From the sequence record OP870144.1: a DNA stretch of 64,000 bases; one strand, 5' to 3'. Below are positions 1-39,360 of the stretch, one piece after another. Every line of letters begins with the position of its first letter. The first letter of the stretch is position 1. This stretch comes from Escherichia phage vB_Eco_F25. The notes beneath the pieces are model-generated. The model saw nothing but the letters and a program-made list of their open reading frames with translations. It searched no databases and was not told where the DNA came from. The position numbers were made by a program, and so were the translations under genes.

Positions 1-747
1 AACAATATTAACTAATCTTTCATTAGCTTCTTCTATTTCCGATTTTAGCGTTCTAGCTTCCTTTGCCAAATCGTCATACATATTCTGTAGACGAGTAAGG
101 TTGTCACCAGACAATTTTTTCTGTCGTTCAACATTATCGTTATATATTTTAATTTGTTGGATAATACTATCTTTTTTAACATCAAGCACTTGGTTTTGTG
201 AATTTAATTCACGTATTAGTGCTTTATTAAGCTTATCCATTTCAGCTAATGTTCCTACCTCGAGCAGGTCTTCGACGAGTTTTCTTCTTGCAGGAGTGGA
301 TAGGCCCATGAAAGGGGTATATCCAGCCGTGCCGAGTACGACGATCTGTTTGAAACTGGCGTATGACATTCCGATAAGCTGTTCAAATTCTGCTTGGAAA
401 TCTTTACTGCTGGCAGATTCATTAAGACGTGTACCGTTAACGGTGATTTCGAAAACATTTGGTTTTTGTCCTCTTTTGATATAGTACTTTTTCTCATCAT
501 ATTCCATCCACAGTTCAACTAAAAGCTCTTTCTTATTTGTGCTGTTTATTAATTGGCCTTTCTTTACATCACGAAATGGCTTGCCAAAAAGCCCAAATGT
601 GATGGCTTCTAACATAGTAGACTTACCACCACCATTTCGTCCAGTAATAAGAGTTTTTTGAACCTTATCTAATTGAATGTCAATAGGATTTCCACCTACT
701 GACATTATATTTTGATATCTAACTCGGTTTAGTTTAAAATTCTTCAC
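1..747 (-). CDS. 46: gp46 recombination endonuclease subunit (Rad50/SbcC-like ATPase), N-terminal part; gene continues beyond window start
   Basis: Minus-strand frame open from 747 to 1; N-terminus MKNFKLNRVRYQNIMSVGG with Walker A GRNGGGKST; apparent GTG start overlapping upstream TGA. Confidence 0.85.
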   Translation of the reverse strand, partial: MKNFKLNRVRYQNIMSVGGNPIDIQLDKVQKTLITGRNGGGKSTMLEAITFGLFGKPFRDVKKGQLINSTNKKELLVELWMEYDEKKYYIKRGQKPNVFEITVNGTRLNESASSKDFQAEFEQLIGMSYASFKQIVVLGTAGYTPFMGLSTPARRKLVEDLLEVGTLAEMDKLNKALIRELNSQNQVLDVKKDSIIQQIKIYNDNVERQKKLSGDNLTRLQNMYDDLAKEARTLKSEIEEANERLVNIV

Positions 748-959
748 AAAAGATTCCTTTTAATGTATCTTTTAGACCATTCTATCATATCATCATAATC
801 TAAAAAGTATTCATCAAATTCAGCCATGCAAACAACACCTTGTGCTGCTTTTGATGTGATATAAATTATTCCAACATATCTAGAATCTTCTTCGGTGTAA
901 TCAATATTTGCTATGAATTCATCGTTAATGTCAAATGTCGAAAACTTCACAGTATGCAT
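744..959 (-). CDS. small hypothetical protein between genes 47 and 46
   Basis: Track ORF 744..1007; internal ATG at 959 (MHTVKFSTFD...) shortens overlap with upstream ORF; stop overlaps gene 46 start. Confidence 0.35.
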   Translation of the reverse strand: MHTVKFSTFDINDEFIANIDYTEEDSRYVGIIYITSKAAQGVVCMAEFDEYFLDYDDMIEWSKRYIKRNLL

Positions 960-1194
960 CCTTAATACAAGATACAGCCATATCTTGTAATGATTTAGGT
1001 GTGTCATTATCTAAAATGTTGAAGTTAAAAGATACAGCCCAGTCAGTGCAGACCGTGACCTTTTTAATACAATTATCTTCAACCTCTAACAGTTCAAACC
1101 AATATTCAATAATTTCTTTATGCCCAATATCATCTTTTACTTCACATTCAAAATGCTGACTCATCATAACATTTTTAAATTCATCAAAAGTCAT
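931..1194 (-). CDS. small hypothetical protein, translationally coupled to gene 47
   Basis: 87-aa ORF; its ATG overlaps the gene 47 stop in an ATGA arrangement. Confidence 0.5.
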   Translation of the reverse strand: MTFDEFKNVMMSQHFECEVKDDIGHKEIIEYWFELLEVEDNCIKKVTVCTDWAVSFNFNILDNDTPKSLQDMAVSCIKDAYCEVFDI

Positions 1195-35924: not shown

Positions 35925-36091
35925 AGTTTTGTGAAAAAATTTTTTAAAAAGTTTTAGGGAATTCTAGGGAAGGGAGGGGCAATTAAAGGATAGGATAATA
36001 TATTATAAAGGGTAGAAACTAAATGATGCCTAGAGAGGTCCAGAAAGGCCTAGATACCAAAAAGCCCTATCATTTAGATAGGGATTTAAAA

Positions 36092-36655
36092 TTATTTATC
36101 TAGTTTAGTTATTATAGCTTCTGCGGCAGCTTTTAGCTTAGATGCGGTGTTAATACGATTTTTAATTTCAGTATACGCATCGCCAAGAACATCAAGGCTA
36201 TCAGAATAAACGCTTACACTATTGCGTTCGCTATTTGAAATAGAACCTTTAGTTTTACGATCAAAATCGATGTACACGTCTTGAAGATCACGGGCTGCCT
36301 TCTTTGCATCATCCAATGCATCAAGAGCTTTATTCAAAGCATTAACGTATTTTTTAGTGTCGAACATATTCTTAGAAATTTTAACAGGCGCACGTTCAGG
36401 AGTAGCTAAGGCAGATTTAGGAACCTGAGCGCCAGATGCCAGTTTCTTAGAAATTTTGAAAAATGCTTTATTGAATTTATTTTCTTGACTCATCGTAAAA
36501 GAACTATTATCAATGTTATACATTTCAATAGCTTTAGCTTTCCACTTAAGAAAATCGCCACGGTCTTTTGGGTCCAATTGGAAGAATACTTTAGTAAGTT
36601 CTGCTTCAGATGGTAATTTTGCTGCTTCGGTTAAAAATTCGGCATAGGTTTTCAT
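36092..36655 (-). CDS. capsid-targeted (internal-protein-like) protein, 187 aa
   Basis: N-terminal MKTYAEFLTEA CTS; Lys/Ala-rich. Confidence 0.6.
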   Translation of the reverse strand: MKTYAEFLTEAAKLPSEAELTKVFFQLDPKDRGDFLKWKAKAIEMYNIDNSSFTMSQENKFNKAFFKISKKLASGAQVPKSALATPERAPVKISKNMFDTKKYVNALNKALDALDDAKKAARDLQDVYIDFDRKTKGSISNSERNSVSVYSDSLDVLGDAYTEIKNRINTASKLKAAAEAIITKLDK

Positions 36656-36736
36656 TTAAAATCCTTGAAATAATTTATCGGTCAGTTATTAATTATTTAT
36701 TACTTTGTTATTATCCGTAACAGCATTCTCTATGCG

Positions 36737-36769
36737 ATTCAAACTAAAAAGCCCCAACCTTTCGGTCGA
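36737..36769 (-). terminator. rho-independent terminator
   Basis: AGCCTCGACC-GAAA-GGTTGGGGCT hairpin + TTTTTAG; near-identical copy at 37299. Confidence 0.6.
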
Positions 36770-36780
36770 GGCTAAGAATG

Positions 36781-37254
36781 TTATTTGATTTGTTTAGCAG
36801 ACCAAATGCGGTCTTTGATGATTTTTTGGAGATCTTCAACATACTCTAGGTCATGAGCATGTGGATTATCTTTGAAACTATAGGCACGGGCTAATTTTTG
36901 GCCTTCGGTTTTAATTACTAAAAGCTCTTTAAGGATAGCTTCATATTTAGCGATAATTCCTTTAACAATATTTTTTTCTTGTGCAGCTTTAGGATCTGCT
37001 TTAGGAGCAGGTTTACCGGAAGGTTTTTCGAAAGCCGCACCAGTAGCAACCAGACTTTTCCAGGCGGTGGTAACATAGTTACCCACAAAGCCTTCAGCTC
37101 TCATATCGTCGTAGAACTTGTACCGGGATTCGTCAGAAGCATCTTTATAAGAATATTTACCAGATTTAATAGCAGCAGTTGCTACAGCGCGAACATCTGA
37201 AGCGGATGCTTCATTTAACACCGCTTCATTTAAAAATTGAGCATATGATTTCAT
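36781..37254 (-). CDS. capsid-targeted (internal-protein-like) protein, 157 aa
   Basis: N-terminal MKSYAQFLNEA CTS-like sequence; late-promoter-like TATAAATA upstream. Confidence 0.6.
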   Translation of the reverse strand: MKSYAQFLNEAVLNEASASDVRAVATAAIKSGKYSYKDASDESRYKFYDDMRAEGFVGNYVTTAWKSLVATGAAFEKPSGKPAPKADPKAAQEKNIVKGIIAKYEAILKELLVIKTEGQKLARAYSFKDNPHAHDLEYVEDLQKIIKDRIWSAKQIK

Positions 37255-37291
37255 CTTATTTCCTGTTTTAATTCGTGGTTTTAATATACTT

Positions 37292-37299
37292 ATTTATAC
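37292..37299 (-). promoter_or_regulatory. late promoter TATAAATA
   Basis: Exact TATAAATA on minus strand about 40 nt upstream of the 36781..37254 start. Confidence 0.45.
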
Positions 37300-37331
37300 T
37301 AAAAAGCCCCAACCTTTCGGTCGGGGCTAAG
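37299..37331 (-). terminator. rho-independent terminator after stable RNA region
   Basis: AGCCCCGACC-GAAA-GGTTGGGGCT hairpin followed by TTTTTAG. Confidence 0.6.
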
Positions 37332-37537: not shown

Positions 37538-37644
37538 GCTGTGATATAAGGGGACATTAACAAAACATAAAGATTTATTAATGCCAGTCCTTAAACAGGG
37601 AACATCAGTCCGACGACTTGCCGGTAGCGACCCGGCTTCTTGTT

Positions 37645-37719
37645 TGGTATCCCGCCCTGGGATCGAACCAGGACCGCAAACTTAGAAGGATCGTATGCTA
37701 TCCATTACACCAGCGGGAC
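37645..37719 (-). tRNA. tRNA-Arg (anticodon TCT), CCA encoded
   Basis: Cloverleaf GTCCCGC...CTTCTAA...CCTGG-TTCGATC-CCAGG...GCGGGAT-ACCA. Confidence 0.85.
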
Positions 37720-38353
37720 GTAATTTATTTAAAAGACAAGACAAATCGGAAATCTCATCTTTTTCTAAAACTACCAAATTTTCTAAAGCTTTCCATTTAC
37801 AAAGATCTCTATCTCTTTTATATCCTTTGACTTCTATATAAAAATCATAAGTGGGTAAATAAAAATCAGGAAAATAGAGATGTTCTGAACCTTCCCATTC
37901 GTAAGGAATTGGCTTTATTTTATTAGTATATTTGATATTGTGTTCTTTTAAAAACTTAGCAACTTTTAATTCCCAGGTCCCTTTAAATTTAAACCCGTCA
38001 AACTCATATGTTTTTACTCGACCAGAAACATTAGAAGCAGAATATGAATCAGGATTATCAAGAACAGCTTGCCGCATTCTTTTAGAATGTGCTTCTTTGC
38101 GTTCATTAGACCATACATATCCAGTATTGGCTTTTCTAAGTTTTTCTCTAGTTTTATCAGAGACTTTTATTTCTTTACCTAGTTCTTTGGCTTTGGTAAA
38201 TTGATTACTACCTTTAAGACCATAACGAGGGTTATTAGGGCCGCTCATATCTAATCTATTTGGGTTAGATTTGCACCGTTTTTCATGCTGCTTTAGTGAA
38301 TTTAAATTTTTACATTCTTTAGAACAATATTGACAAAGCATAATTTTCTCCAT
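37682..38353 (-). CDS. free-standing endonuclease: N-terminal Zn finger, NUMOD3, C-terminal PD-(D/E)XK-like nuclease domain
   Basis: CQYCSKEC...HEKRC; TREKLRKANTGYVWSNERKEAHSKRMRQ; FPDFYLP...DFYIEVKG; last 12 codons lie inside tRNA-Arg. Confidence 0.65.
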   Translation of the reverse strand: MEKIMLCQYCSKECKNLNSLKQHEKRCKSNPNRLDMSGPNNPRYGLKGSNQFTKAKELGKEIKVSDKTREKLRKANTGYVWSNERKEAHSKRMRQAVLDNPDSYSASNVSGRVKTYEFDGFKFKGTWELKVAKFLKEHNIKYTNKIKPIPYEWEGSEHLYFPDFYLPTYDFYIEVKGYKRDRDLCKWKALENLVVLEKDEISDLSCLLNKLRPAGVMDSIRSF

Positions 38354-38410
38354 GAATTTTATATAGATATTTATTCATGGAGAAGTTGACTGCTCTACCT
38401 AATCAAAATA

Positions 38411-38484
38411 TGGCCCAGACCAGATTTGAACTGGTAACCTTTCCCTTATGAGGGGACTGCTGCTAACCATTGAGCTACAGGGCC
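38411..38484 (-). tRNA. tRNA-Ile (anticodon CAT; AUA-reading after lysidine modification)
   Basis: Cloverleaf with anticodon loop CTCATAA, T-arm ACCAG-TTCAAAT-CTGGT. Confidence 0.8.
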
Positions 38485-38490
38485 TTGATA

Positions 38491-38548
38491 TGCTGATTGA
38501 CGGAATCGAACCGCAAGTGAGGTGCTCTACCTACTGAGCTAAATCAGC
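38491..38548 (-). pseudogene. tRNA-Thr-like gene lacking most of the anticodon arm (58 nt)
   Basis: Intact acceptor stem, D-arm GCTC-AGTAGGTA-GAGC and T-arm, but only CCTCACTTG between D-arm and T-stem. Confidence 0.7.
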
Positions 38549-38555
38549 GAAATTA

Positions 38556-38896: not shown

Positions 38897-38969
38897 CTGG
38901 GAATAAAGGACTCGAACCTTTGCATCCTGGAATCAAAATCCAGTGCCTTACCAACTTGGCTAATTCCCA
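38897..38969 (-). tRNA. tRNA-Gln (anticodon TTG)
   Basis: Anticodon stem-loop CTGGA-TTTTGAT-TCCAG; T-arm AAAGG-TTCGAGT-CCTTT. Confidence 0.85.
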
Positions 38970-39066: not shown

Positions 39067-39360
39067 TTACCATTTATGATAATACATGTTTACGATGCAT
39101 TCAAGACCCAAAGGATTCTTGAAAATATCATATTCAAGAGGACCTTTTTCTGTTTCGATAAAGAAATCAAAATTTACTGTATTAAATTTACGGTCTTCCT
39201 TTACTAATTTAACTTGAGAAGATGAACGGTCAATGTAAACCTTTTCAACTTCAAAACATGTTAAAATGCCATAATCATCAATCAAGGCTTTAGCTGCTTC
39301 TTGATCATATTTATATCCATTTTCAACGGATGATACTTTCGCATAAAGAATCATCATCAA
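39067..39360 (-). CDS. hypothetical protein (97 aa)
   Basis: ORF. Confidence 0.5.
   Translation of the reverse strand: MMMILYAKVSSVENGYKYDQEAAKALIDDYGILTCFEVEKVYIDRSSSQVKLVKEDRKFNTVNFDFFIETEKGPLEYDIFKNPLGLECIVNMYYHKW

Follow-up and report, generated by a model that had tools for sequence, protein, structure and literature searches.

Homing endonucleases shape the mosaicism of phage genomes and supply enzymes for genome engineering, and to our knowledge the PD-(D/E)XK homing endonucleases characterized so far are I-Ssp6803I and the members of the EDxHD group. The target of I-Ssp6803I is the tRNA-fMet gene of Synechocystis, which has a CAT anticodon and is interrupted in the anticodon loop. 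Hef has been placed in the EDxHD family (PMC3239194). In bacteriophage T4, the tRNA region gives rise to a single precursor transcript of ~1.75 kb (PMC2330249), and hairpins over the start site are known for T4 e, I-TevI, Aeh1 mobE, and T4 segB (PMC3014915; PMC2330249). In the case of I-TevI, the translation block protects the folding of the host RNA (PMC3014915); for segB, a processing-dependent impairment was proposed, with the mRNA being cut between the last sense codon and the stop codon (PMC2330249). Here, we analyzed 64,000 nucleotides of Escherichia phage vB_Eco_F25 (OP870144.1; this whole stretch is referred to as the window), a T4-like (Tequatrovirus) genome in which a mobile cassette with an endonuclease gene has replaced the T4 segB segment. 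We propose that this gene is probably a free-standing homing endonuclease gene (HEG) of a tRNA(CAT)-linked family, which was relocated to the spacer that separates tRNA-Ile from tRNA-Arg, came to read into tRNA-Arg through a deletion, and is controlled by a hairpin.

The endonuclease cassette and its tRNA(CAT)-linked family

The cassette comprises 675 nt (37728..38402, minus strand) in a region that is otherwise 93-97% identical to hundreds of T-even phage records. Homology to T4 breaks at 37727 and 38403, and no DNA homology to T4 segB was found between 37728 and 38402. On its upstream side lies an intact tRNA(CAT) gene of the T4 tRNA-Ile type (38411..38484, minus strand), which was labeled tRNA-Met by ARAGORN, scored 56.9 bits in Rfam, and aligns with T4 tRNA-Ile. 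The tRNA-Arg(TCT) gene (37645..37719, minus strand) is likewise intact. The open reading frame (ORF) of the endonuclease (37682..38353, minus strand) encodes 223 amino acids when read from 38353, although its likely start is the second ATG at 38341, which gives 219 amino acids; this start is preferred because GGAG lies 6 nt upstream of it, because the homologues have their N-terminus at this point with M-x-C, and because the identical gene of phage IME341 is annotated from the corresponding ATG.

The ORF overlaps tRNA-Arg by 38 nt (37682..37719, minus strand), so that nucleotides 1-38 of the tRNA supply its last 12 codons, encoding RPAGVMDSIRSF, and the TAA that follows them. This TAA corresponds to T36-A37-A38, that is, the last anticodon base and two further bases of the loop. 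An initial annotation had already placed the end of a 223-residue ORF within tRNA-Arg and its stop in the anticodon loop, and the coordinates, ARAGORN, and Rfam agree on this arrangement; the tRNA-Arg assignment on which it depends is upheld by an Rfam score of 48.8 bits (threshold 29) and by 100% identity with the annotated T4 tRNA-Arg. Because the same overlap recurs in IME341, EcWhh-1, and HEMP5, it is evidently not an assembly artefact.

The distribution of the gene is that of a mobile element. Two Dhakavirus phages, IME341 and EcWhh-1, carry the cassette with 97% identity next to flanks that are 68-80% identical to the window, and the greater likeness of the cassette than of its flanks between Tequatrovirus and Dhakavirus is that of a laterally transferred segment; an identical endonuclease gene is present in HEMP5. 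Among 785 phage records that match the region, only 1 carries most of it, and the endonuclease gene was found in only a handful of the hundreds of Tequatrovirus, Dhakavirus, and Kuttervirus genomes. Empty sites were observed in the Dhakavirus phages vB_EcoM_005 and UGJNEcP3, where tRNA(CAT) and tRNA-Arg are 5-8 nt apart; aligned with these sites, the cassette ends ~2 nt before tRNA-Arg +1, which bears out the earlier suggestion of an insertion directly 5' of this tRNA. In another Dhakavirus, LHE83, the same Ile/Arg slot holds a 666-nt gene annotated as a homing endonuclease. The slot is thus polymorphic for presence and absence with alternative occupants (segB in T4, the 666-nt gene, or nothing), as in free-standing HEGs. 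The 666-nt gene (429..1094 in the LHE83 locus, L087) also occurs in IME540 and AnYang; it equals T4 segB in length and is possibly segB-like. One 5-8-nt site is accordingly occupied in alternation by two different endonuclease genes in two genera.

We then asked about the wider family through 179 homologues of the window protein; its clusters at 50% identity number 302 (E<=1e-30) or 1981 (E<=1e-10). The genomic context was surveyed in a scan of viral contigs that yielded 329 relatives, from which 79 loci were fetched, representing 57 clusters at 90% identity. A tRNA gene on the same strand starts between -95 and +30 nt from the stop codon in 32 of these 57 clusters, and its anticodon is CAT in 27 of the 32, as against 30 of the 271 other tRNAs at the same loci (Fisher p = 6e-18). 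The family is strongly tied to tRNA(CAT) genes. No previous account of the family, of its tRNA(CAT) specificity, or of its split, replace, and relocate architectures was found in the literature searched, which left most subscription journals outside, so that this absence is no proof. Other arrangements were also observed. In L076 (3162..3238) and L061 (3038..3114), a tRNA(CAT) gene of the opposite strand shares 44 and 6 nt, respectively, with the ORF, and the L076 protein tail ...GLEPATSRL is a reverse-complement reading of the T arm and acceptor stem. The copies in Acinetobacter phages, which are 59% identical, lie within a tRNA cluster without an adjoining tRNA(CAT); in phage Apostate (L089, 1345..1419), the neighbors are an annotated 'tRNA-Pyl' 85 nt upstream and a tRNA-Cys 45 nt downstream.

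The nearest relatives at other loci, P0003 (L092), P0004 (L095), and the copy in CkP1, with 70%, 69%, and 67% identity, sit within split tRNA(CAT) genes. In all three, the 5' half of the tRNA (nt 1 to ~34, ending ...CTC(A/C)T) lies ~50 nt upstream of the start codon, and the 3' half overlaps the end of the ORF, running from ...CTGAATAA through the anticodon stem (3' strand), the T arm, and the acceptor strand to CCA. Through this overlap, the anticodon loop and stem come to specify LLNN(W/R) at the C-terminus of the protein. An intact orthologue of the tRNA(CAT) that is split in these three genomes is found in Karamvirus AS6. A different outcome was observed in the Kuttervirus phages PhaxI and ST-W77, a filled and empty pair with flanks that are 99% identical: in PhaxI, only nt 1-27 of the resident tRNA(CAT) are left. 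Behind them come a hairpin, the endonuclease gene, and another tRNA(CAT), which is complete and differs from the resident one; homology to ST-W77 resumes directly after the 3' end of this second tRNA. Family members more remote than the three above have a 5' relic and, behind the gene, a complete tRNA(CAT) that the ORF stop often overlaps. Across the survey, 16 of the 57 clusters have a 5' relic of tRNA(CAT) at 30-80 nt upstream of the start codon, and 9 have a 3' relic at the ORF end. The 5' relics were also considered as duplicates of the downstream tRNA, but they are unlike it in most relic-bearing loci (those of L026 and L084 partly resemble it).

Relics of the same kind were recognized in the window. 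Upstream of the gene, the stretch GGTAGAGCAGTCAACT (38384..38399, minus strand) corresponds to about nt 18-33 of a tRNA(CAT) 5' half, which comprise the D loop, the D stem, and one strand (5') of the anticodon stem. In alignment, its counterparts in L092, L095, and CkP1 are the 5' tRNA halves located ahead of the homologous hairpin, and scored against tRNA(CAT) 5' halves it reaches a z of ~8 relative to shuffles. At the other end, AAATAA (37725..37730, minus strand), which encodes part of the C-terminal ...LNK, matches the 3' part of the anticodon loop and aligns with ...CTGAATAA of the three split genes and with CTCATAA in AS6, where the tRNA is intact. The empty Dhakavirus sites have neither relic. 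Since both neighboring tRNAs of the window are intact and both relics are missing from the empty sites, the cassette appears to derive from an ancestor that was embedded in a tRNA(CAT) gene. In the mechanism that we propose, the cassette would have moved from within such a gene to the neighboring Ile/Arg spacer. At co-infection, the enzyme would make a double-strand break in or beside the tRNA(CAT) genes of phages that lack the HEG, and recombinational repair of the break would then copy the cassette in.

Hairpin, overlap with tRNA-Arg, and neighboring sequences

The start region of the endonuclease gene forms a predicted hairpin (38346..38384, minus strand), in which a loop of 15 nt tops a perfect stem of 12 bp (UUCUCCAUGAAU / AUUCAUGGAGAA). 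Both the GGAG Shine-Dalgarno sequence (38348..38351) and the first AUG are buried in this hairpin, and the AUG at 38341 is covered by an outer helix. The fold of 38325-38415 has a minimum free energy of -23 kcal/mol (z -3.4), and none of 200 shuffled sequences was equally stable. The stem covaries in CkP1 (UCUCCUUAGAAU / AUUCUAAGGAGA), L092 (GGCUCCUUGGAAU / AUUCCAAGGAGCC), and L095 (CUCGUGAAU / AUUCAUGAG), and perfect stems of at least 9 bp cover the start region in 18 of the 57 family clusters. The loop of the window hairpin contains a late-promoter-like TATAAA(AT), and the exact T4 late promoter TATAAATA occurs in the hairpin loops of L038, L041, and L046. No convincing sigma-70 promoter or terminator was found adjoining the ORF. 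The only such signals bound the whole tRNA unit, namely a promoter-like site near 39076-39104 at its upstream end and a terminator-like hairpin (37305..37328, minus strand) that ends the tRNA and small-RNA transcription unit and matches the end of the T4 tRNA-rnaD-rnaC unit. Judged by these signals, the endonuclease gene is part of the tRNA transcription unit, in agreement with the single T4 precursor of ~1.75 kb (PMC2330249).

By analogy with T4 e, I-TevI, mobE, and segB, these elements suggest how expression of the gene may be restrained. The hairpin over the ribosome-binding site would keep ribosomes off the tRNA-precursor transcript and thereby protect the folding of tRNA-Arg, and a cut by RNase P at tRNA-Arg +1 would deprive the message of its stop and of the 12 codons before it, leaving a non-stop mRNA; together, the two would keep endonuclease levels low. 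A coupling of translation to tRNA-Arg processing is plausible and has a precedent in the proposal for segB (PMC2330249).

The origin of the overlap was addressed by comparison with L091, a metagenomic relative with 84% protein identity that has the same relic, hairpin, and downstream tRNA-Arg in the same slot. The L091 ORF ends ...IKP-TAA, 18 nt before an identical tRNA-Arg, and does not include the 12 tRNA-encoded residues; relative to it, the form shared by the window, IME341, and EcWhh-1 has a gap of ~26 nt that takes out the L091-type stop. Most simply, the reading into tRNA-Arg would reflect a recent deletion of ~26 nt that added a disordered tail of 12 residues. In the order of events that we propose, this deletion would have followed the relocation of the cassette and taken its own stop, so that translation would now end at T36-A37-A38 of tRNA-Arg.

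The overlap might instead be a selected regulatory device by which each transcript could serve either endonuclease synthesis or tRNA maturation but not both, either through the RNase P cut or through unfolding of the tRNA. Such overlaps recur: a tRNA overlaps the ORF in 22 of the 32 clusters with an adjacent tRNA (22 of all 57), and the stops fall at conserved tRNA positions, namely U8-A9-G10 (TAG/TAA) in 8 clusters, nt 13-15 in 3, and nt 36-39 in 4. The overlap is annotated in RefSeq for PhaxI (CDS 1492-2133 and tRNA-Met 2124-2197, in locus coordinates), the same idea has been put forward for segB (PMC2330249), and translation into structured RNA harms the host RNA in the case of I-TevI (PMC3014915). 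However, the length of the overlap varies from 1 to 87 nt, in 10 further clusters the stop lies 1-21 nt ahead of the tRNA, and the tail is neither conserved nor ordered. Moreover, L091 has its own stop in the same slot, and the geometry of insertion suffices as an explanation, in that a cassette ending at or in a tRNA gene will run to the first in-frame stop. We therefore regard a selected device as unlikely, and the suggestion in the initial annotation that the overlap might couple endonuclease translation to tRNA processing is not supported in the sense of a purpose-built arrangement at this locus, given the 84%-identical L091 with its upstream stop, the ~26-nt deletion, and a tail that is modeled as mostly disordered. 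The stop within tRNA-Arg is by itself ordinary, a minor effect of a recent deletion, and the pattern at the level of the family is of more interest. A bolder proposal would be that the family is an unrecognized class of intron-less invaders of the anticodon loop, which split tRNA(CAT) or replace it with an allele carried as a fusion to their own 3' end and shuffle tRNA(CAT) genes between unrelated large phages, and that overlap and hairpin form a selected RNase P switch acting through non-stop mRNA and transfer-messenger RNA (tmRNA) tagging; in this full form, we consider it doubtful.

Further differences were observed around the cassette. Just 3' of tRNA-Arg, the window (37636..37644, minus strand) and L091 (1343..1351) have AAACAAGAA in common, T4 has AAATGAGAA, and IME341 has AAATGAAGA; AAACAAGAA may be a short co-conversion tract that travels with the cassette. 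Upstream of its endonuclease gene, L091 has a tRNA(CAT)-like sequence (473..553), the D arm of which is aberrant and the T loop of which reads TTAGACT; this sequence was not called by ARAGORN and may be a degenerate or unusual tRNA. Next to tRNA-Ile in the window, the homologue of tRNA-Thr(TGT) (38485..38555, minus strand) has been left as a pseudo-tRNA by a 15-nt deletion (T4 GTAATGAGGATGTCG) that starts within the anticodon and removes the remainder of the anticodon loop as well as the variable loop and the stem's 3' strand. This homologue was missed by ARAGORN, scores 41 bits over 58 nt in Rfam, and is intact in HEMP5; speculatively, the deletion might be a scar of cutting by the endonuclease. 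Compared with the window at 38898..38963, HEMP5 (L097) has ~620 extra nt between the tRNA-Gln region and tRNA-Leu, where ARAGORN calls no tRNA-Gln, and it lacks the segment corresponding to 36084..37300, which contains an ORF of 157 amino acids (36781..37254) and the end of one of 187 amino acids (36092..36655). Because of this insertion and the missing segment, the window represents a phage distinct from HEMP5 with the same cassette.

The nuclease and its possible roles

The window protein combines three regions, all encoded on the minus strand. The first is a CCHC zinc finger (C7, C10, H23, and C27; 38273..38335), which is invariant in 29 homologues, gives weak C2H2-type Pfam matches, and is modeled with a predicted local distance difference test score (pLDDT) of 86-94. 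It is followed by a presumably DNA-binding helical linker with NUMOD3-like motifs (residues ~36-100; 38054..38248), which was delineated from Pfam matches of relatives, helices in the AlphaFold (AF2) model, and structural neighbors in BFVD. Both had been suggested by the initial annotation: the Cys-rich finger stands, and the NUMOD3-like region is backed only through relatives, 7 of 29 matching NUMOD3 (PF07460; best E 1.9e-5), whereas a match of the window protein is lacking at E<=1. Many other relatives, among them P0014, P0060, P0072, and P0089, are 260-340 amino acids long and carry N-terminal extensions with extra C2H2-type zinc fingers, which suggests a modular expansion of the DNA-reading part.

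The third region is a PD-(D/E)XK nuclease domain (residues ~113-204; 37742..38017) with conserved catalytic residues, the codons of which are at 37970..37972 (E128), 37865..37867 (D163), 37832..37834 (E174), and 37826..37828 (K176). The nuclease-like FPDF...EVK signature noted from the sequence at the outset proved invariant: E128, P162-D163 within FPD163F, and E174-V-K176 are unchanged across the alignment of 29 homologues. The domain shows the core alpha-beta-beta-beta-alpha-beta fold of the superfamily, and the AF2 monomer model has a mean pLDDT of 84, with 90-96 in the nuclease domain and <50 at residues 215-223. In profile searches, the protein matched PHROG 15137 'endonuclease' (E 1.2e-40), nothing meaningful in NCBIfam, and no GIY-YIG domain in Pfam, PHROGs, or NCBIfam, in line with the first impression that the enzyme is not of the T4 segB type. 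Among 29 relatives, Phage_endo_I was matched by 23 (E<0.01) and DUF7487 by 13. The sole solved structure reachable by sequence is T7 endonuclease I (1m0d, 1fzr, and 2pfj, by phmmer and hmmsearch), with E values of 1.5e-5 for the single sequence, 2.5e-6 for the family profile, and 4.7e-7 for only the C-terminal domain. The catalytic core of T7 endonuclease I (E / PD / ExK), the residues of which we take to be E20, D55, E65, and K67, aligns with E128, D163, E174, and K176. Neither Vsr nor 3r3p (I-Bth0305I) was recovered in sequence and profile searches at E<=1 to 10, which for 3r3p were searches of the PDB. Structural neighbors in BFVD are uncharacterized phage proteins labeled zinc finger, NUMOD3 ('Nuclease associated modular domain 3'), endonuclease I, and homing endonuclease. 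By its motifs and fold, the window protein is a PD-(D/E)XK superfamily nuclease with an N-terminal zinc finger and probable NUMOD3-like modules. The ratio of nonsynonymous to synonymous substitution rates (dN/dS) is 0.11 against IME341 and 0.087 against L091, values from which we infer that the gene is intact, under purifying selection, and functional.

Purifying selection would also fit a co-opted gene, one that, like SegB in T6, promotes amplification or exchange of the tRNA region and escape from host defences that target tRNAs. Under the action of SegB, tRNA-Tyr and anti-defence loci undergo segmental amplification (PMC13096335), and the Kuttervirus copy delivers a new, different tRNA(CAT) allele. 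However, no repeats or amplified segments were seen at the window locus, and a strong benefit would be hard to reconcile with how rarely close relatives carry the gene, which makes co-option improbable. Still less credible is a housekeeping or structure-specific nuclease, that is, a Holliday-junction resolvase of the T7 endonuclease I type rather than a mobile homing enzyme. This assignment has on its side the database annotations 'putative endodeoxyribonuclease I, Holliday junction resolvase', a match to PHROG 9019 'Holliday junction resolvase' (E 2e-10), and the fact that the only solved relative by sequence is T7 endonuclease I, but the gene has few carriers among the hundreds of genomes of the three genera, alternates with segB and an empty site, sits inside split tRNA genes, and bears zinc-finger and NUMOD3-like modules typical of homing enzymes; T4-type phages, moreover, already encode a resolvase, endonuclease VII (gp49). 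The idea that the gene resides in a self-splicing intron, or that the tRNA is reassembled at the RNA level as with I-Ssp6803I in tRNA-fMet, can be set aside as very improbable: although in CkP1, L092, and L095 the break between the tRNA halves on either side of the gene falls precisely at the anticodon loop, where group I introns of tRNAs are classically found, no Rfam group I or II intron was found in the window (E<=0.1) or in L003, L008, L014, L092, L095, and L088 (E<=1), the ~47 nt before the ORF and none after it leave no room for a ribozyme core, none of the possible junction registers provides the final G that a group I intron needs at its 3' splice site, and both neighboring tRNAs of the window are intact.

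The reading that we prefer, a free-standing, tRNA(CAT)-linked HEG that relocated to the Ile/Arg spacer and is controlled by a hairpin, has to be weighed against several points that speak against it. The resident tRNA-Ile(CAT) is identical in genomes with and without the HEG, a comparison in which no HEG-specific 'immunity' substitutions were found, so that if this tRNA is the target, self-immunity is left without explanation. At 16 nt, the 5' relic of the window is short, the loop of the hairpin lacks the exact T4 late promoter and has only TATAAA(AT), and the direction of the indel, with either the L091 or the window form as ancestral, is assigned by parsimony alone. The Phage_endo_I (PF05367) match of the window protein (21.7 bits, E 1.6e-4) is below the gathering threshold of 29.1. 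The context survey represents 57 clusters of one viral-contig collection, out of ~300, and the cleavage activity and target site of the family are those that we infer from the sequences.

With these points taken into account, the family is large and uncharacterized, and it would combine an active site of the T7 endonuclease I type and a modular zinc-finger/NUMOD reader with a sharply defined natural target, tRNA(CAT). Its loci suggest three ways of landing in an RNA gene without an intron: splitting the gene, replacing it with a carried copy, or hopping to the adjoining spacer. In the last of these, two unrelated endonuclease families, that of the window and SegB, appear to compete for a single spacer of 5-8 nt.

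Comparison with known systems

In its mode of action, the element resembles SegB and other free-standing homing genes of T-even phages, and T4 SegB is the closest parallel in position. Like the window gene, segB occupies the slot between tRNA-Ile(CAT) and tRNA-Arg, its product targets tRNA genes, its start is covered by a hairpin, and its 3' end abuts tRNA-Arg, the maturation of which should cut the mRNA (PMC2330249); SegB is, in addition, widely associated with phage tRNA clusters (PMC13096335). However, the GIY-YIG fold of SegB is unrelated to the PD-(D/E)XK fold of the window protein. SegB recognizes the universal T-psi-C motif, and its association with tRNAs shows no isotype preference (PMC13096335), whereas the window family is associated with tRNA(CAT) in 27 of 32 cases and lies in or next to the anticodon loop. 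Furthermore, segB has retained a stop of its own 5 nt ahead of the tRNA, and the window ORF reads in. The problem of self-immunity is the same for both.

In the order of its domains, the window protein resembles I-Bth0305I and Hef of the EDxHD family, which are phage-borne and likewise combine an N-terminal NUMOD-type region with a C-terminal restriction-fold nuclease (PMC3239194). The catalytic motif of that family is, however, Vsr-like (E, D, x, H, D), and the window protein has the canonical E...PD...ExK instead and does not belong to it. I-Bth0305I is also intron-encoded and without a zinc finger, in contrast to the free-standing window gene and its zinc-finger product. I-Ssp6803I belongs to the same PD-(D/E)XK superfamily as the window protein, and its target is of the kind proposed for the window family, but it is a small, single-domain enzyme without zinc-finger or NUMOD modules, and it resides in a group I intron, the splicing of which restores the tRNA; in the window family, there is no intron, and the tRNA is destroyed, replaced, or bypassed. 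T7 endonuclease I (gp3) has its catalytic core in common with the window protein but is a structure-specific junction resolvase, a domain-swapped dimer with no DNA-binding extension, whereas the window gene behaves as a mobile element.

A further parallel is provided by the GIY-YIG element linked to atp6 in Allomyces, which reportedly inserts in a gene and brings a foreign copy of the part that it disrupts, the original part being left as a relic. The PhaxI locus, compared with that of ST-W77, resembles an element of this type, although the target is a tRNA rather than a protein gene, a whole tRNA is fused to the 3' end of the ORF, and the host is a bacteriophage.

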